DNA from: Promethearchaeota archaeon
GTDB taxonomy: Archaea; Asgardarchaeota; Lokiarchaeia; Sigyniarchaeales; SOKP01
Assembly (NCBI GenBank): GCA_008080735.1
Contig: SHMW01000091.1
Span: forward strand, 1 to 16,984
Direction of reading: 5' to 3'
Length of the DNA: 16,984 nt
Under the pieces are notes generated by a model. That model did no database searches, was not told the origin of the DNA, and saw nothing but the letters and a program-made list of their open reading frames with translations. Each line of letters opens with the position of its first letter. The stretch's first letter is position 1. Shown piece after piece: positions 443 to 16,984 of the stretch. The position numbers were made by a program, and so were the translations under genes.

Positions 443-457
443 CATAAACATTTAAAA
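443..457 (+). promoter_or_regulatory. Putative BRE/TATA-like promoter of coiled-coil gene 1
   Basis: CATAAACATTTAAAA, 14/15 identical to 1584-1598 upstream of the paralog; TTTAAA TATA-like core about 95 nt before the ATG. Confidence 0.45.
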
Positions 458-545: not shown

Positions 546-1394
546 ATGAGTATAGATTGGGACAAGGTTGAATCAAGCCCTAATTCAAAAGTAAAATTAG
601 TAGGAAAGGATTTATTAGAGCTAAAAAACAAAATCGCTGACCTCGAAGAGGATAATTTTAAAAAGGAGGAGCAAACACTAAAGTTACAAGAGAAACTTGC
701 AACTACAGAACGTTCATTCAAAGATATCATTAATAAGGCGACTCAGACTGAAAAGAATTTGAAAATCAAGATTTCCGCCTTACAAGAGAAGTTAAGTGCT
801 GCAGAGAGCCAGATAGAAAAGCAAGGAAGAAGATTGGCAAACCTTATGGGAAGCTCTATTGATATTATGAGTGAGGCACCTTCGGGTGATGAGCCAGTAA
901 ATCCTTATATAAAAGGGTTCGACAGCATATTCAATGAATTTAATTCCCTAAGAAAAGACGTGGAACAAATACGATTAACTCACCGCAATGAATTTAAGAT
1001 TAATAAACATGAAATCTCGCAGGTAAATGATCGCTTAGATAACCTTATTGGAACGTTTGAAGAGACCATACCTGAAACGAATAAGGAAATTGAACGATTG
1101 AAAGAAGAGTTAAAGGTTAAGGATAAACAAATCAAAGTGACGAAAGAAAATTTGGATGAGGCGATCTTAAGTAAGGATCAAATCATTCAGAAATTAGAAA
1201 GTGATTTGGAAGCAAAGATCGAAGAGATAAATGAGTTGAATAGCACTGTGGATGCTTTATATACGCAAATATCAGAATTCAAGAATACTCCAAAAGTGAT
1301 TGGAAAAATCATTGATGCGGTAAAGCATAAAGGATCCATAAGCGATAAAGAATTGGAAAAGATTTTAGAAAAAGGGATGAAAAAATATCAATAA
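546..1394 (+). CDS. Coiled-coil protein, paralog 1 (282 aa): IDWxK head, two coiled-coil segments split by a Pro/Gly linker, HKGxISDKE tail
   Basis: K/E/L-rich heptad-like sequence; SD-like GAGGTGA at 533-539; about 48% identical (manual count 136/282) to 1682..2530. No Walker A motif, so not an SMC ATPase. Confidence 0.85.
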   Translation: MSIDWDKVESSPNSKVKLVGKDLLELKNKIADLEEDNFKKEEQTLKLQEKLATTERSFKDIINKATQTEKNLKIKISALQEKLSAAESQIEKQGRRLANLMGSSIDIMSEAPSGDEPVNPYIKGFDSIFNEFNSLRKDVEQIRLTHRNEFKINKHEISQVNDRLDNLIGTFEETIPETNKEIERLKEELKVKDKQIKVTKENLDEAILSKDQIIQKLESDLEAKIEEINELNSTVDALYTQISEFKNTPKVIGKIIDAVKHKGSISDKELEKILEKGMKKYQ

Positions 1395-1583
1395 TTTTTC
1401 TTATTTTCAATTGATCAATGAGTAAAACCCTAGAAAAGTATAAATCTACTATTTAATATTTCAGCTTCTTTTATTTATACAGATTTTCCTTGGCGATCCC
1501 ATTATGGTATTATATAATTACACAGTAAATCCGTCTGCATATATCAATGATATTATGGTCTGATGAAGATATCGAATATCAAC

Positions 1584-1598
1584 CATAAAAATTTAAAA
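1584..1598 (+). promoter_or_regulatory. Putative BRE/TATA-like promoter of coiled-coil gene 2
   Basis: CATAAAAATTTAAAA matches 443-457 and lies about 90 nt before the GTG at 1682. Confidence 0.45.
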
Positions 1599-1681
1599 GT
1601 GGTAATTCAATATTTAGATTTTATAGATTGTTTGAGTTTCTATAGATTTATTAATTAAAAACACATTCGGTGAGGAAGATA

Positions 1682-2530
1682 GTGACCATAGATTGGAATA
1701 AGGCATTAGCAAGACCAAATAGTAAACAAAAAGTCGAAGGAAAAAATCTGCTTAAATTAAAGGAAGAAATGGAAAGATTAGAAGCCAAATTAGAAGATTC
1801 TGAAGAGAGATTTGGATTGGCTAAGGAAAAATATGAAGCAACCGAAGAATCGTTTAGAGAAATCATTGATAGAGCCAGTCAAAAAGAAAAAAACCTAACT
1901 TCAAGAATAGAATCATTAAAAGCAAAATTAGAGGATAAACAAACACTACTGAAGGAAAAAAAGAAAGAGCTGGAATATTATATAGGTCCGGCTAATGATA
2001 CCCAAAAGAAACCCCCAATAAAATCTCCGAGAAAAGAGATATCATCAAATTCTTTTGCGAAAATAGGAGAAGAGATTGAAGAATTGAAATATGAGATGGG
2101 GCGGATTAAGGCACGAACTAAAAATGAATTAATGATCGATAAGATGGAAATCTCTCAGATTAACAATCGGTTAGATAACCTCATTGAAAACATAGACAAG
2201 ACAATCCCAGAAACAAATAAAGAGATTGAACGATTGAAAGAAGAATTGAAGGTAAAGGATAAACAGATCAAAATCACTAAAAAAGATCTGAACAGATCCA
2301 TTATTAGTAAAGATAAGATAATCAGCAAATTAGAGAGTGATTTAGAGGCCAAGATTGCAGAAATTAGTGACCTCAATAATACAATTGATGCACTTTATAC
2401 ACAGATTAATAAGACAAAAACGATTCCAAAATTAGTCAAGAACATTATTGATATAATGGAACATAAGGGATATATCAGTGATAAGGAATTTGAAAAATTG
2501 CTGGAAAAAGAATTGACCTCCGTACCGTGA
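1682..2530 (+). CDS. Coiled-coil protein, paralog 2 (282 aa from the revised GTG start)
   Basis: The ORF track starts at 1670, but GGTGAGG (1669-1675) is an SD spaced for the GTG at 1682. That start gives MTIDWNK, matching MSIDWDK of paralog 1, and an identical 849-nt length. Confidence 0.85.
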   Translation: MTIDWNKALARPNSKQKVEGKNLLKLKEEMERLEAKLEDSEERFGLAKEKYEATEESFREIIDRASQKEKNLTSRIESLKAKLEDKQTLLKEKKKELEYYIGPANDTQKKPPIKSPRKEISSNSFAKIGEEIEELKYEMGRIKARTKNELMIDKMEISQINNRLDNLIENIDKTIPETNKEIERLKEELKVKDKQIKITKKDLNRSIISKDKIISKLESDLEAKIAEISDLNNTIDALYTQINKTKTIPKLVKNIIDIMEHKGYISDKEFEKLLEKELTSVP

Positions 2531-2681: not shown

Positions 2682-3368
2682 ATGAAACGAAGTAAAATTA
2701 ATGACGTGATGAGACAAGCGGTTGATTTTTTTGAGGAGCAGAAATTCTTTTTACCAGAGTTTGCGTTTTGGAAATTAGAAGATTGGAAGAGTCGAGGAGA
2801 AGAGATCAAGGAAATAATTGATAATCAATTGGGGTGGGATATCACTGACTATGGAAGCGGGAATTTTTCCGATTTTGGATTGATTCATTTTACTCTAAGA
2901 AATGGAAATTTTGCAGATATTCCAAAGGGGGCAAAACCTTATTGTGAGAAAGTGATGATTATGGAGGAGGGACAAGTAATTCCCATGCATCATCATAATC
3001 AAAAAATAGAGGATATCATAAACCGCGGAGGCGGAATTTTATCTATTCAACTATATAATACAACTAATGATAATCAGTTAGCTGAAACTCCTGTCGTGGT
3101 ATTTTGCGATGGAATTAAAAATGAATTAGAGTCAGGAAGCGTAGTAAACTTAAAACCCGGAGACTCAATCACCATTAAGCCCGAACATTATCATAAATTT
3201 TGGTGTAAGGAAGGAAGCGGCAGAGTTTTAATCGGAGAGGTCTCAAGCGTGAATGATGATTATAGGGATAATGTGTTCTTAAAAAAAATCGAACGCTTTA
3301 TAGAAATTGAAGAGGATGAGGAACCGCTATATTTACTATATGATGATTATGAGAAATTTTTAGAATAA
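2682..3368 (+). CDS. D-lyxose/D-mannose family sugar isomerase (cupin, DUF1498-type)
   Basis: MKRSxIN start, GWDITDYG, FTLRNG, PYCEK, PMHxHxxKxEDIINRGGG metal motif, HKFW, GEVSSVNDD. Confidence 0.9.
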   Translation: MKRSKINDVMRQAVDFFEEQKFFLPEFAFWKLEDWKSRGEEIKEIIDNQLGWDITDYGSGNFSDFGLIHFTLRNGNFADIPKGAKPYCEKVMIMEEGQVIPMHHHNQKIEDIINRGGGILSIQLYNTTNDNQLAETPVVVFCDGIKNELESGSVVNLKPGDSITIKPEHYHKFWCKEGSGRVLIGEVSSVNDDYRDNVFLKKIERFIEIEEDEEPLYLLYDDYEKFLE

Positions 3369-3437
3369 AAATAAGTAGATCTTTAAGCATAGTGTTAAAA
3401 TAATAGAATTAAAATTTCTATAAAGATTTGTTATTTC

Positions 3438-5414
3438 ATGTTAAAAAGAACTCGTCTAGCTCCATATAATAAATTATCTTCTATTTCATATAATCATATA
3501 AAAATTACCGACTTGTTCTGGTCTAAAAGACAAGAGATAAATAAAGATATTTCTCTCCCATTGATGCTTGAAAAATTAGAAGAAGATCATCATATCGATA
3601 ATTTTCGGGTTGCCGCAGGACTGAAGAAAGGTATTCATTTGGGTGATTTCTATTTTGATTCAGATCTCTATAAATGGCTAGAAGGTGCATTATATTTTCA
3701 TCAAATATTTTCTTTACCCACCAAAATAAGTTCCCAAATTAAGGAGATTATTGGATTGATAGAAAAATCTCAATTGAAGGATGGGTATCTGAACACATTT
3801 TACACACTTAATTTTTTACAGAAGCGCTTTACTAATTTTTTAATTTTTCACGAATTATATTGCGCTGGTCATTTAATTGAAGCGGCTCTGGCAGAAGCCA
3901 ATCTTACAAATAATGGTATCCTTCTAAAAGTAGCCATAAGATTTACCAATTTATTAGTTAACAAAATTCTAAATAATGATCTTCGAGATACCGCGGGCCA
4001 TCCTGAGATCGAATTAGCTTTGATTAGACTTTATCGAAAAACAAAAAATAAAGACTATCTAAATTTGTGTGATCATCTAATTAAAGAGAGGGGAAATATC
4101 CCACATCTTAGAACATATGTTATGAGAAGATTAATAGATGCTGTAAAGACTTTTGGAGAAAGTAGAAAAATAAGACAACACTATTTAGATAATAATGAGA
4201 TTGAGAGGATTGAAAAGGAGGAAGCTGCTGAATTTTTAGAAGGTTTAACGCCTAGAGATTGGCTCATTTTTCTTAGGCAAAACCTTAATGGTAAGCAATA
4301 TCAGCTCAATACACCTATACGTGAAGCGTATAATCCCGTGGGACATGCTGTTAGAGCATTGTATTTATATTCTGGAGCCGCGGATCTTTATTCGGAAACA
4401 GGAGATGAGTCTTTATTAGATGCAATGGAATTATTATGGTTAAAAATGGTGAAAGGTAAAATATATATTACCGGTGGAACGGGTTCCGTGAAAGCTATCG
4501 AAGGTTTCGGTAAGGATTTTCAGTTATCTCTCGAAAATTCATATTCAGAGACATGTGCAGCCATTGCAAATATTATGTGGAACTGGAGATTGCTTCTTAT
4601 AACAAAAAAGTGCAAATACGCGGATCTTATAGAAAGATTACTATATAATGCTATGCTCCCGGGACAATCCTTAGATGGGAGAAAATATTTTTATGTGAAT
4701 CCTATGATCTCCAATGGAGAGCATACGAGAAAAGAATGGTTTAAATGTCCGTGCTGCCCAACTAATTATATACGATTCATTCCACAGATAGGGAAATATA
4801 TTTATTCTATTTCAGAAAATGATATTTGGATTCATCAATATATAGGAAATGAAGCAGAGATTCCATCAAATTCAGGGCAGTCAACTAAAATTATTCAAAA
4901 AAGTGAATTTCCGTGGGATGGAAAAGTTTCTCTCCAGATAATCAACGATGGGGTAGAAAAATTTTCTCTCTACCTTAGAATTCCAGACTGGTGTGAAAAT
5001 CCAACAATCTATATGAATGACGAGAAGATTACCAAAAATTTAATTCCTGGTGCATATTTTCGGTTAGAGAATAAGTGGAATAACGGAGACTTAGTTGTAT
5101 TAGACTTACCAATGAAACCACTGCTGCATTCAGATAAATTAAATAGAAAAGAAACTAAAGGGAAAAAGTATATTCAATACGGTCCATTAATATATTGTGT
5201 GGAGGAAGTTGATAATCAAGATTTACAATTTTCGCGTTTAAAAATAGCAAAAGAATCAGATTTAGAGAATGTCTATAAAAAATCGATATTAGGAGGAATG
5301 ACGATTCTTAGAGGTAAAACAACTTCTGGAAGAGTTTTCACAGCGATACCGTATTTTGCATGGTGTAATAGGAAGCCAACGAAAATGCGTGTATGGATCA
5401 ATTCGGAAGATTAA
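3438..5414 (+). CDS. Glycoside hydrolase family 127 (beta-L-arabinofuranosidase-like, HypBA1 type)
   Basis: DSDLYKWLEG, HELYCAGHLIEA, GHPEIELAL, GHAVRALYL, ETCAAIAN and CPCCP (Zn/Cys nucleophile site), IPYFAWCNR; no signal peptide. Confidence 0.92.
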   Translation: MLKRTRLAPYNKLSSISYNHIKITDLFWSKRQEINKDISLPLMLEKLEEDHHIDNFRVAAGLKKGIHLGDFYFDSDLYKWLEGALYFHQIFSLPTKISSQIKEIIGLIEKSQLKDGYLNTFYTLNFLQKRFTNFLIFHELYCAGHLIEAALAEANLTNNGILLKVAIRFTNLLVNKILNNDLRDTAGHPEIELALIRLYRKTKNKDYLNLCDHLIKERGNIPHLRTYVMRRLIDAVKTFGESRKIRQHYLDNNEIERIEKEEAAEFLEGLTPRDWLIFLRQNLNGKQYQLNTPIREAYNPVGHAVRALYLYSGAADLYSETGDESLLDAMELLWLKMVKGKIYITGGTGSVKAIEGFGKDFQLSLENSYSETCAAIANIMWNWRLLLITKKCKYADLIERLLYNAMLPGQSLDGRKYFYVNPMISNGEHTRKEWFKCPCCPTNYIRFIPQIGKYIYSISENDIWIHQYIGNEAEIPSNSGQSTKIIQKSEFPWDGKVSLQIINDGVEKFSLYLRIPDWCENPTIYMNDEKITKNLIPGAYFRLENKWNNGDLVVLDLPMKPLLHSDKLNRKETKGKKYIQYGPLIYCVEEVDNQDLQFSRLKIAKESDLENVYKKSILGGMTILRGKTTSGRVFTAIPYFAWCNRKPTKMRVWINSED

Positions 5415-5449
5415 ATATTAAGCCTCATTTTTTATATCCGTTTTTTATA

Positions 5450-6877
5450 TTAGTGTCGATGATGATTATAATGGTCCAGAAATTCTTTATATTCACACAA
5501 CTTCCTTAATGCTTTAGATGCTAAGTCGACAGACTCAAATACAGGGATTCCAGCAGCGAACAATGCTTTTTTGAAGGCTATTCGTTCTCGAAAATCTTCG
5601 AGATTATCTCGTATTTTAGGAGTAATACATATTAATGGTTTTTTCATTTGGTTTTTAGCTTGTATGATGGCATCGCTAAATGGTTTAGTTAGATAATATG
5701 GTTTGATAAAAATAACGCAAGATATATTGGGATCGGTATCTAAAGTTATTAAGGATTTTGCGAACACGTTTGGCATTAATCCATTACCTCCCAGATCTAA
5801 AGGATTGGTAAAAATCGTATTGACCGCTGGTAAAAATTGCTGGTATTGTTCCTTTGTATAATTTGATAAAGTCGGAATCATTAATCCATTTAATTCCATC
5901 TGTTCCGTTAATTCTATGGATGTTCCTCCGCCAACCGCAATAATTCCTAACTTGTCTCTCTCAATTTTCTTGTAATCGATATATTTAAAAGCCATTGCTA
6001 AACTTACTAATTCTAGGGTATTGTTCACCAATAAAGTACCCGTTTGCTTTGCCATATCCTTCCATAGTTTATGAGATCCTGCCATCCCTCCTGTGTGAGA
6101 TAAAATCGCCTCCTTGGCAGACTCTCCGTATCCAACTTTCCATAGGATTATTGGTTTACCACTCAGACAGATTTGCTTTAAGAGTTCAATGAATTTTTTT
6201 CCTTCGCGGGAATTTTTGACTTTAAGATTTTCCAGGTAAAGTCCTATAATTTTAGTCTGGGTATCCTCGTTAAAATATTCTAAAAAATCGATGACATTCA
6301 AATCAATCTGATTTCCTATGGAAATTGCCTTACTAATATAGGTGGAATAGCTATGGATTGCCGTGTTGGTAATATTGATTGAAAGACCTCCAGATTGACT
6401 AATAAGACCAAAAGAACCAGGGTATGCGGTTTGCCACCGACTTACGGACAATCTTGCTTTGGGATTATAAACTCCCAGACAATTAGGTCCAATAATTCTT
6501 ACATTATACTTCTCTGCGATACTTAATACTTGATTTTCTAGGGTTTTTTTACCCACTTCTGAAAATCCTGAGGAAAAAATTGTTGCATAAGGTACCCTTT
6601 TTTCTCCTACTTCTTGTAAGATTTTAGGACATTTTTCTGCGGGAACTGCGATAATCACATAATCAATCGTTTCATTTTCCTCCACCTCCAAAATTGAACC
6701 ATAAACTCTGTGATCAAAAATAGTTTTACCTTTCAATCTTGGATTGAATAAGTAAATGGGTCTTTCAAAACCAATCGATTCTAAGCAATTAAGAAAATAG
6801 CCGCCACCATATGGTTTTTCATTTACTCCTATGATTCCTACCGCTTTAGGATTGAATAATCTCTCGAATTTACTCAT
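5450..6877 (-). CDS. Acetate/acyl-CoA ligase (ADP-forming) alpha-subunit-like CoA-binding protein
   Basis: LFNPKAVGIIG CoA-binding start, IIGPNCLG, ISQSGG, SIGNQIDL, SHTGGMAG (phospho-His), NPLDLGG; no ATP-grasp domain. Confidence 0.88.
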   Translation of the reverse strand: MSKFERLFNPKAVGIIGVNEKPYGGGYFLNCLESIGFERPIYLFNPRLKGKTIFDHRVYGSILEVEENETIDYVIIAVPAEKCPKILQEVGEKRVPYATIFSSGFSEVGKKTLENQVLSIAEKYNVRIIGPNCLGVYNPKARLSVSRWQTAYPGSFGLISQSGGLSINITNTAIHSYSTYISKAISIGNQIDLNVIDFLEYFNEDTQTKIIGLYLENLKVKNSREGKKFIELLKQICLSGKPIILWKVGYGESAKEAILSHTGGMAGSHKLWKDMAKQTGTLLVNNTLELVSLAMAFKYIDYKKIERDKLGIIAVGGGTSIELTEQMELNGLMIPTLSNYTKEQYQQFLPAVNTIFTNPLDLGGNGLMPNVFAKSLITLDTDPNISCVIFIKPYYLTKPFSDAIIQAKNQMKKPLICITPKIRDNLEDFRERIAFKKALFAAGIPVFESVDLASKALRKLCEYKEFLDHYNHHRH

Positions 6878-6945: not shown

Positions 6946-7494
6946 TTAAGGAATAGCACTTTCTTCACGAGGGTAAATATATTTCTCAAATAAAATATCG
7001 GTCATATTGGTGAACGCCTCTTCTACATTTTGACCTGTTTTCGAGGAAAGCTCTATAAAGGCCGCAAGATTATATTTTTTTGCTGCTTGAATTCCCTCCT
7101 CTCTGGAAACTTCCCGATAAGGATCAAGATCAAGTTTGGCGCCAACAAGTATAATTGGGATATCACCTGCATTCTCACGAATTATACTCGTCCATTCTGG
7201 AAGATGTTCGAGGGTTATGTGTTTTGTTATATCATAGAGAAAGAGAGCACCATTTGCACCCCTACAGTATTGAGGGAGTAAAAATCTGAATCGTTCTTCT
7301 CCTCCAAAATCCCAGATTTGATATTTCACTTTCTTTCCTTTAAATTCTGTAGTTTTGCTAAAAAAATCTACTCCAATTGTGAGTTTTAAGTCTTCTAAAA
7401 AAGATCCCGAAATATATCTTATCGTAAGGGACGTTTTCCCGACCGCTGCGTCTCCAACCATTAAAATTTTGAATGTATAATCGAAGTCTACCAC
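6946..7494 (-). CDS. Rab-like small GTPase (Ras superfamily, Asgard type)
   Basis: FKILMVGDAAVGKT (G1), TIGVDF (G2/RabF1-like), IWDFGGEERFR (G3), YCRGA, GAKLD (G4), ELSSKTG (G5); no C-terminal Cys. Confidence 0.92.
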   Translation of the reverse strand: MVDFDYTFKILMVGDAAVGKTSLTIRYISGSFLEDLKLTIGVDFFSKTTEFKGKKVKYQIWDFGGEERFRFLLPQYCRGANGALFLYDITKHITLEHLPEWTSIIRENAGDIPIILVGAKLDLDPYREVSREEGIQAAKKYNLAAFIELSSKTGQNVEEAFTNMTDILFEKYIYPREESAIP

Positions 7495-10463: not shown

Positions 10464-11327
10464 TTAATGATTAATCTCCCCCAATTCAGTCAGGTGATAT
10501 ATTTTTTGGGCTAATTCCGGAAATTTATCAAGTTCTAATTGAAAAGTTTTTCCATCTTTTAACTGGATCTCCTTCAAGATTCTTTTAATCTGATTTTTAT
10601 CACTATCAGAGTACCTAAATCTTTTTAGGAATAATCCTATAGCATTTGAGAGATTTTTATTCTTATAGGGCATTATTCCCGCAATAAATTTTAAGAAGAA
10701 GTCTCTTGTTGACTCTTCTTCTAAAAAAGGAGGGAGTTCTTTCTTGGGTTTAAGTTTTATTAAGGATAAATCAATTTTGGGTCGAGGATAAAAAGAATTC
10801 TTAGATATTTGAACCCTTTTAATCGGATTCATAAAAGAGTTTACACTCACAGTAATACGCGAGAAATTATGATATTCTTTCTTGTAAAAAATTCTGTCCG
10901 AAATACTTTTTTCAATGACCAAATTGCCATTAGGTGGACTTGATTTAAAAAATACTTTTTCTAATAGGGGTCCAGTGATAGAATAAGGGATGTTTGAAAC
11001 TATCTTATTATGTGGGGGCAGTTCCGCCTTTAGAATATCTTGATGTATAATTTGTACATTAGGTCTTTTCGCAAATTTATCAGAGAGATACCTATATAAG
11101 TTAGCATCAATTTCATAGGCATATACGTTTTGGGCAACACCACTTAGCTTCTCGGTCAGTGCACCTAATCCTGAACCAACTTCTAAGATAATATCATCCT
11201 CAGAAATATTGGAAAACTCTATAATTTTAGAAGTGGTAAGCTCATTAATTAAAAAATTTTGACCTAAGTGTTTTTTAGGAGAAATTCTAAGATTTTTTAA
11301 AATAGATATTACGTCTTTTTTATTCAT
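10464..11327 (-). CDS. rsmA: 16S rRNA m6,2A dimethyltransferase (KsgA/Dim1)
   Basis: KKHLGQNFL, LEVGSGLGALT, YEID, VSNIPYSIT, FYPRPKID. Confidence 0.95.
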   Translation of the reverse strand: MNKKDVISILKNLRISPKKHLGQNFLINELTTSKIIEFSNISEDDIILEVGSGLGALTEKLSGVAQNVYAYEIDANLYRYLSDKFAKRPNVQIIHQDILKAELPPHNKIVSNIPYSITGPLLEKVFFKSSPPNGNLVIEKSISDRIFYKKEYHNFSRITVSVNSFMNPIKRVQISKNSFYPRPKIDLSLIKLKPKKELPPFLEEESTRDFFLKFIAGIMPYKNKNLSNAIGLFLKRFRYSDSDKNQIKRILKEIQLKDGKTFQLELDKFPELAQKIYHLTELGEINH

Positions 11328-14501: not shown

Positions 14502-14747
14502 GTGGCTAGTAATGACGTACAACAAGGTTTCGTGAAGTGGTTTGACTACAGAAAGGGTTATGGATTTATAGCGGTGAAGGATCAAGAAGAAGATGTTTTT
14601 GTTCATTATTCGAATATCGATATGCAGGGCTTTAAAAAACTTGATCAAGGCGATGAAGTTGAATTTGAATTAAAGGAGAATGAAGGCGAAGAAAAGGGTC
14701 CAGAAGCTCTGAACGTCAAAATAATTGCGAAAGATCGAAGATTTTAA
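14502..14747 (+). CDS. csp: Cold-shock domain protein
   Basis: GFVKWF, KGYGFI (RNP1), DVFVHYS (RNP2), GPEALNV; GTG start with GGCGGT upstream. Confidence 0.95.
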   Translation: MASNDVQQGFVKWFDYRKGYGFIAVKDQEEDVFVHYSNIDMQGFKKLDQGDEVEFELKENEGEEKGPEALNVKIIAKDRRF

Positions 14748-16314: not shown

Positions 16315-16445
16315 TATTTCCTAATAGATCATTATTGAACTACCAAGCCCTTAAGGGCGTGGATTCGTAATTCATCGAGAATTGCTGACCTAACATCAGT
16401 CTTACATTCTCTCCAAACGCATTAACCGTAGTCCCTACGGCAGAC
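16315..16445 (-). ncRNA. Predicted TnpB omega/reRNA (3' scaffold plus guide); 5' boundary uncertain
   Basis: Stems within the tnpB 3' end: CCGTAG-GGA-CTACGG (16426-16440); GAGAAT…CTGAT/GTCAG…ATTCTC (16377-16411); right-end hairpin (16343-16362). Guide would follow TCAA. Confidence 0.65.
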
Positions 16446-16984
16446 TCATCATTACTCATGATCGTAATATTTTCCTCTTCTAATTTCTTAAAACTTTTCT
16501 TTCTAATGTTTTCGGACGCATTTATATCTCTATCGTGATGAGCATTACAATTCGGACAAGTCCATTCTCTATCACTTAGCTCTAATATCTCATTCTTATA
16601 TCCACACTCGGAACATAGTTTAGAACTCGGAAAATATCGGTCTATCAAGACTAAATGCTTTCCTTTTTGTTCCATTTTATACTCCAGAGTAGATACAAAC
16701 TGATACCACGAAAAATCTAAACTCACCGATTTAGAGAGTCCCGAATTGAACGATTGCATCCCCTTGATGTTCAAATCTTCCAAGATCACGCAATTGAAAT
16801 GTTCGGAAAGGAGATGTGTCATCTTGTGCATCCAATCCTTTTTTCGATTATTGATTTTCTCGTATAACTTAGCTAACTTCTTTCTGGCTCGATTTCGGTT
16901 ATTCGATCCCTTCTTCTTTCGGCTTACTTCTCTATGGAGTTTTCTAAGTTTTGCTTCTTCATTTCGATAAAATCGGGGATTAGC
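16335..16984 (-). mobile_element. IS200/IS605-family element, right part (left end outside window)
   Basis: tnpB plus right end reading GAAT-CCACGCCCTTAAGGGCTTGG-TAGT-TCAA on the minus strand: GAAT guide tetramer, subterminal hairpin and TCAA cleavage site, as known for the IS608 right end. Confidence 0.85.
16340..16984 (-). CDS. tnpB: TnpB RNA-guided endonuclease (5'-truncated by window edge)
   Basis: Frame stays open upstream of the listed ATG to the edge (ANPRFYRNEEAKLRKLHREVSRKKKGSNNRNRARKKLAKLYEKINNRKKDWMHK); RuvC-II ILEDL, Zn finger CSEC…CPNC, RuvC-III HDRDINA. Confidence 0.93.
   Translation of the reverse strand, partial: ANPRFYRNEEAKLRKLHREVSRKKKGSNNRNRARKKLAKLYEKINNRKKDWMHKMTHLLSEHFNCVILEDLNIKGMQSFNSGLSKSVSLDFSWYQFVSTLEYKMEQKGKHLVLIDRYFPSSKLCSECGYKNEILELSDREWTCPNCNAHHDRDINASENIRKKSFKKLEEENITIMSNDESAVGTTVNAFGENVRLMLGQQFSMNYESTPLRAW

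Follow-up and report, generated by a model that had tools for sequence, protein, structure and literature searches.

Two neighbouring genes on the forward strand of a 16,984-nucleotide stretch of archaeal DNA (the window) raise the question of what a pair of diverged coiled-coil proteins of exactly equal length might do. The initial annotation read them as an in-register heterodimer, a candidate filament or ruler, from an Asgard-like archaeon, and the source does belong to the Lokiarchaeia class. Gene A (546..1394) and gene B (1682..2530) each encode 282 residues, and BLASTP aligns the products with 136 identities over 278 positions (49%) and 0 gaps. Ungapped identity is 48.2% overall, 18.6% over residues 81-150 and 65.9% over residues 151-282, reproducing the earlier manual figures of 48, 19 and 66%. 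GTG 1682, the corrected start assigned to B, is the right one, since a Shine-Dalgarno-like GGTGAGG (1669..1675) precedes it and the closest orthologue, in L001, has an ATG at the same position; the upstream GTG 1670 falls within the GGTGAGG itself.

The two proteins share a head-coil-hinge-coil-tail layout. The AF2 model of A, a single chain with a pTM of 0.26 whose numbering is that of the residue minus 1, has helices at 4-9 and 19-100, a disordered segment at 101-118, a long helix at 119-245 and two short ones at 247-261 and 266-278. The N-terminal head (546..656) comprises a short helix, an extended segment and the start of the coil, and is found class-wide by alignment and profile search. 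It leads into a first coil (603..848) of ~82 residues (~12 nm) with heptad hydrophobicity, a 24-residue hinge (843..914) predicted to be disordered (pLDDT < 50), and a second coil (903..1283) of ~127 residues (~19 nm), the most conserved part in the orthologue group. The chain ends in a helix-turn-helix tail of two amphipathic helices (1287..1382), which we call the T module. The tail is broken in the model, and heptad analysis reveals several register shifts along the coils. In B the hinge lies at 1979..2050 and the tail, placed by alignment, at 2423..2518; the hinge of A is mostly acidic, with a net charge of -3, and that of B is basic, with a net charge of +3. The layout is as first described, except that the linker can hardly be called proline-rich, the orthologues of A having 0-3 prolines within its 24 residues.

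As had been noted before, neither protein has an ATPase motif or a transmembrane segment: the Walker A motif is absent from both, and the maximum 19-residue hydropathy is 0.23 for A and 0.28 for B. Assignment to a known non-structural family, which would have spoken against the filament model, was looked for, and no known family or enzyme domain scored above curated cut-offs in a search with Pfam-type models. The named homologues are hypothetical proteins of Lokiarchaeota or Promethearchaeati. SMC and Rad50 proteins, with an ABC ATPase head and about 900-1200 residues, differ from the 282-residue A and B, against which SMC models reached 20-30 bits compared with cut-offs of 567-729. A Foldseek search of the PDB with the model of A gave no match, and ESM Atlas searches returned generic coils only. 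Both genes are under purifying selection (dN/dS against the respective orthologue 0.065/1.11 for A and 0.045/0.99 for B, ~0.05 overall), relaxed to about 0.2-0.36 in the hinge.

Comparison shows that the pair is an ordinary tandem duplication, in which a single member of a modular family was copied, apparently together with its promoter. An AT-rich, promoter-like 15-nt motif, CATAAAMATTTAAAA, is present in exactly two copies in the 4.1-Mb genome, at 443..457, 103 nt before the start of A, and at 1584..1598, 98 nt before that of B. Its presence at about -100 of both genes and nowhere else in the genome suggests that a promoter was duplicated along with the gene. The putative promoter is near-identical in L001, L002 and L081, and its second copy is a conserved block in four A-B spacers. 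The spacer itself measures 287 nt and includes, after the stop of A, a partly conserved T-rich run (1395..1408) that may act as an archaeal terminator. A scan for sigma-70-type promoters was uninformative, the host being an archaeon. Phylogenetically, A, B and the single-copy orthologues form separate clades, with coil-only proteins as the outgroup, and B keeps the YYxGP motif of the single-copy orthologues. Recent gene conversion in coil 2 was considered and rejected, since synonymous differences between the two genes have reached saturation (pS 0.9).

Equal length proved not to be a property of the pair. In P0003 and P0004 an A-type gene, whose 282-residue product is 70% identical to A, stands between a histone gene (L148) and a lyxose isomerase gene with neither B nor a remnant of B at the locus (L149 begins just upstream of the A-type gene). 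Both sequences nest within the A clade (100/100); B could sit elsewhere in the unassembled genomes of this lineage. One orthologue is found at the same locus in genus g6 and one at another locus in G131, and the single orthologues of G014-G017 and G131 have a head-to-tail span of 257-258 residues, compared with 257 in A and B. Several of these single-copy genes have been shortened by gene callers because they start with ATT or ATA. Orthologues that occur singly, which the initial annotation had named as evidence against its model, therefore exist. The length itself is older still: in a sister group of ~32% identity a continuous coil takes the place of the hinge with the same 24-residue spacing, and the distance from the head to a motif in coil 2 is 190 residues in A, in B and, among the 14 sister-group proteins in which that motif could be located, in 8. 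Together with the lone A-type genes and the single-copy orthologues, this shared register indicates that equal length is a trait the orthologue group inherited, older than the hinge and older than the duplication. Elsewhere in the wider family, genes in tandem pairs and triplets differ in length by 3-77 residues. As a control we counted zero-gap alignments at 40-58% identity, which occurred in 7 of 76 paralogue pairs inside the source genome and in 16 of 28 orthologue-like pairs (11 genes); a gap-free alignment of A and B at such identity is uncommon, not extreme.

Conservation of length is nevertheless real, and the part of the earlier claim that proposed selection on register or length stands in that sense, separated from the idea that the two genes lock one another. 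The span is 257 in 13 and 258 in 3 unique orthologue sequences with identity down to 34%, and the hinge is 24 residues long in 17 of 20 sequences and 25 in the other 3 although its sequence is saturated, as the initial annotation had remarked of the linker. Such constancy, together with the fact that other orthologue groups keep spans of their own (199, 210 and 220), is what one would expect if each group were a fixed-length ruler, this one measuring ~257 residues from head to tail in some larger structure and paralogues of other lengths measuring other distances. We consider this improbable: coiled coils rarely take indels, gap-free alignments arise in 9-57% of control pairs, a disordered elbow is poorly suited to measuring distance, and spans within the sister group vary (262-274 in most members, 239 in one).

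An obligate in-register A:B heterodimer with lengths locked to each other, as first proposed, would account for retention of the pair with equal spans in at least three lineages, and for the tendency of the hinges to carry opposite charge where the genes are paired (-5 to -2 in A, +2 to +3 in B) compared with near-neutral values in lone A copies (-1 and +1). That the partners depend on one another is nonetheless very improbable. A stands alone at the locus in two other contigs, single-copy orthologues share its length, and each gene has its own promoter-like motif with no translational coupling between them. The charges flanking the core show no preference for AB either: a crude tally of g-e' contacts gives 14 attractive and 4 repulsive for AA, 10 and 8 for BB and 12 and 6 for AB, and the same order of AA, AB and BB recurs in two other genomes. 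This differs from the logic of Fos/Jun or of type I and type II keratins, in which partners always occur together and homodimers are disfavoured, since A occurs alone and the tally favours AA. The opposite hinge charges may instead reflect a facultative AB pairing.

The broader answer came from the head. Profile searches place A and B in a family of head-coil-module proteins that spans the Lokiarchaeia and has apparently gone undescribed. A 36-residue head profile matched 107 of 107 genomes of the class, from six families, and 0 of 194 other Asgard genomes; with its 36 columns the profile is short and can miss diverged heads. Searched against 1.84 billion representatives it gave 158 hits, and of the 145 that were re-scored, 144 have a head that starts no later than residue 20. 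The source genome holds four further head genes, of ~95 to 310 codons; these score 54-73 bits, alongside 59.5 for A and 60.1 for B, both of which were part of the training alignment of the profile, and A alone as a query finds the four paralogues at E values of 2e-6 to 1e-4. Members of the family follow one plan, an almost always N-terminal head, a coil of variable length and an exchangeable C-terminal module. Among representatives of at least 120 residues, 30 carry a T tail, 18 a zinc ribbon, 7 a gelsolin-like domain and 2 a weakly gelsolin-like one; other family members end in a TrmB/PLD-like domain or in short or plain helical tails. The T tail occurs in 84 of 91 other genomes of the source's own family and in no other family searched. 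Neither head nor tail profile matched PDB sequences or Pfam significantly, the two profiles are unrelated to each other, and the Pfam SHOCT model matched none of 15 tails at E<=1. A literature search by title or abstract, mostly outside subscription papers, retrieved accounts of the zinc domain and of Asgard gelsolins and none of the head or the family.

Two features of the family's genes may be recorded here. In 31 of 127 head genes (L002:4904, L004:7845, L018, L019 and others) there is no ATG, GTG or TTG within six codons of the head, and ATT, ATA or ATC stands where the start should be; those inspected have a Shine-Dalgarno-like site ahead of it, and gene callers truncate such genes. A conserved, unnamed C-terminal domain of 100 residues with an ARSIAK motif is found in L091, L104, L105, L107, P0119 and P0140; it matches no Pfam model or PDB sequence and has a weak profile resemblance to the gelsolin tails (probability 45%).

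Many coiled-coil-rich proteins of bacteria form polymers, and the family might likewise form filaments. Its rods would join at their ends, either the head of one to the tail module of the next or two heads together, into a polymer resembling intermediate filaments or tropomyosin, which the T-tailed A and B would co-polymerise with, cap or branch. Consistent with this, almost every genome of the class has one head-coil-zinc-ribbon gene, and the f2 genomes inspected, among them the closed genome G341 (4,324,194 bases), have no other head gene; the stalk is far less conserved than the head and tail termini, and its length often changes by 3, 4 or 7 residues at a time; and tandem clusters of 2-3 paralogues are common. 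We nevertheless think filament formation unlikely. The head is conserved though the tails are unrelated, so that binding of a head to its own tail cannot be the rule; the T tail is restricted to one family, and core stalk spans range from 194 to 324. A complex predicted for the core member, in which a head dimer meets a zinc-ribbon dimer in the presence of zinc, scored 0.48 and one unrelated control 0.68, and we count it neither for nor against binding.

Comparison with known rods gives no family match in support of polymerisation, and the resemblance to them is one of layout. Tropomyosin consists of ~280 residues in a parallel, uninterrupted coiled-coil dimer, and its paralogues form homo- or heterodimers. 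A and B resemble it in size, in being paralogues and in their probable parallel dimer; they differ in the non-helical head segment, the disordered hinge (101-118) and the helix-turn-helix tail of the model of A, and the tropomyosin Pfam families gave no match at E<=0.01. Intermediate filaments, crescentin and the bacterial coiled-coil-rich cytoskeletal proteins have a head-rod-tail plan with a segmented rod and no nucleotide site, all of which A and B share. The Pfam Filament model did not match either protein at E<=0.01, however, and in comparisons of rod shape keratin clusters reached TM scores of 0.38-0.49 (< 0.5), no better than unrelated rods. Crescentin appeared in the ESM Atlas search as a feature hit at rank 28 with a score of 0.90.

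Some tails of the family point towards actin. A profile built from eight aligned gelsolin-type tails hit gelsolin, villin, 2DGel3, Loki2DGel and a single-domain Asgard gelsolin over whole chains at E values of 1e-14 to 5e-8, and the Pfam Gelsolin model is found in all eight tails (best E 5.5e-4). Head-coil-gelsolin proteins are encoded in L099, L178:6001-6996 and L179:6001-7137, and a coil preceding a gelsolin domain is not among the architectures in the accessible text of PMC9433394 and PMC7444086. Thorarchaeal 1DGelX (Akil et al. 2020, PMC7444086) also combines a gelsolin domain with a predicted coiled coil, in the reverse order of gelsolin first and coil second; no match to the head was found in genomes outside the Lokiarchaeia class. 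The zinc ribbon that forms the tail of the core head-family member also ends the two-domain gelsolin of the source genome, and it is the Loki 'Zn' domain at the end of Loki2DGel/MKD1-2DGel (Akil et al. 2022, PMC9433394). According to the available sections of that paper the domain closes Loki gelsolins as well as 'unrelated multi-domain proteins' and has no consistent homologues beyond Loki; they do not include the head or the coiled-coil carriers in their account of it. In our searches the domain is more widespread: many non-Loki Asgard families (L118-L127), from classes without the head, have it as one stand-alone protein of 48-103 codons, and several other Asgard families searched gave no match. 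Fold searches with the zinc ribbon matched generic zinc ribbons (best Z 3.8) and no FYVE structure. Two more zinc-ribbon-tailed proteins lack the head, G000:C6:1309-2259 and G000:C52:4489-4848, having a Pro/Ser-rich N-terminus and a coil, and a short helix and a linker, respectively. A and B differ from all of these carriers in having neither a gelsolin domain nor a zinc ribbon, and their link to actin is consequently one of family association.

Taken in this setting, each chain would most likely form a parallel two-stranded coiled coil, the dimer going beyond the single-chain model, with ~31 nm of helix (~12 + 19 nm) and one flexible elbow. Homodimers must be possible, and AB dimers may form without being required. 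Because the head is conserved in all paralogues whatever their tail, it probably docks on one common cellular site; the stalk would then set a distance, and the tail would close the dimer as a small helical bundle, bind a partner or bundle the rods. We give about even chances to the reading of A/B-type rods as tethers or spacers. Their most likely job would lie in the actin-linked cell architecture, because several family tails are gelsolin domains or the zinc ribbon of the Loki gelsolin; the TrmB/PLD-like domain and the plain helical tails, which are not actin-related, count against that link, as do the generic fold of the zinc ribbon and its stand-alone occurrence in Asgard classes that have no head.

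Among Asgard archaea it is the Lokiarchaeia whose cultured members have actin-filled protrusions, and a literature search brought up no paper that names a coiled-coil scaffold or linker for their actin cytoskeleton. With the head in every genome of the class that was searched, always on a stalk and in some cases with a gelsolin or zinc-ribbon end, the family is a candidate part of the cell skeleton. We tentatively suggest, as a possibility with the odds still against it, that the head marks a class-wide coiled-coil cytoskeletal system, in which rods or filaments, anchored by their shared head, hold gelsolin domains, the zinc ribbon and further modules at a defined spacing from the actin network. 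Such a system would be a functional counterpart, not a homologue, of the tropomyosin-, tether- or intermediate filament-like linkers of eukaryotes, with A and B as two of its variants, both hinged and each expressed independently of the other. The family matters more than the pair, and offers a testable lead on Asgard cell architecture.

A and B could also be effectors or tethers of the Rab-like small GTPase encoded nearby (6946-7494), in the manner of golgins and EEA1. Those proteins have conserved end modules, a variable-length stalk and an internal hinge, with a zinc module at the end in some. The head family shows the same features by analogy, down to the zinc module of some members; A and B are much shorter and share no homology with them, the one Golgin_A5 coil hit falling below threshold. 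In genera g1 and g6 a Rab-like gene is found at a distance of 1-4 genes, a different one stands beside the g11 clusters, and the orthologue alignment shows invariant charged residues in coil 2. The T-type pairs of the two largest genera and the orthologue in G131 have no GTPase gene close by, and these genomes hold numerous small GTPases. As an idea drawn from gene neighbourhood it is not general across genera, and we attach very little likelihood to it. In the window itself, genes for D-lyxose isomerase, a GH127 glycosidase and an acyl-CoA synthetase subunit (2682-6877) separate A and B from the GTPase; in genus g6 the coiled-coil gene adjoins the GTPase gene or has one chloride-channel gene in between. 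Further along the window, positions 14502-14747 (forward strand) hold what by eye we take to be a bacterial-type cold-shock domain protein beside the conserved archaeal Pus10-L21e-RpoF-DUF655-RsmA cluster, and positions 16340-16984 (reverse strand) what is presumably a TnpB-like (IS605-type) open reading frame cut by the contig end, likewise recognised by eye.

Finally, in five genomes from three genera the zinc-ribbon part of the core head-coil-zinc-ribbon gene is interrupted by an insert of 30 nt that contains a stop: L037:6575-6620 (G000:C56, about 10560-10620), L108 (G133), L110 (G124), L111 (G071) and L109 (G114). There are four different inserts at three sites. With three of these, the register giving back the consensus protein has a fully paired (4/4) central helix and cuts after the second bulge base, the geometry of a bulge-helix-bulge; the G114 insert fits it poorly (2/4). 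Judged by this geometry, the inserts are probably spliced mRNA introns.
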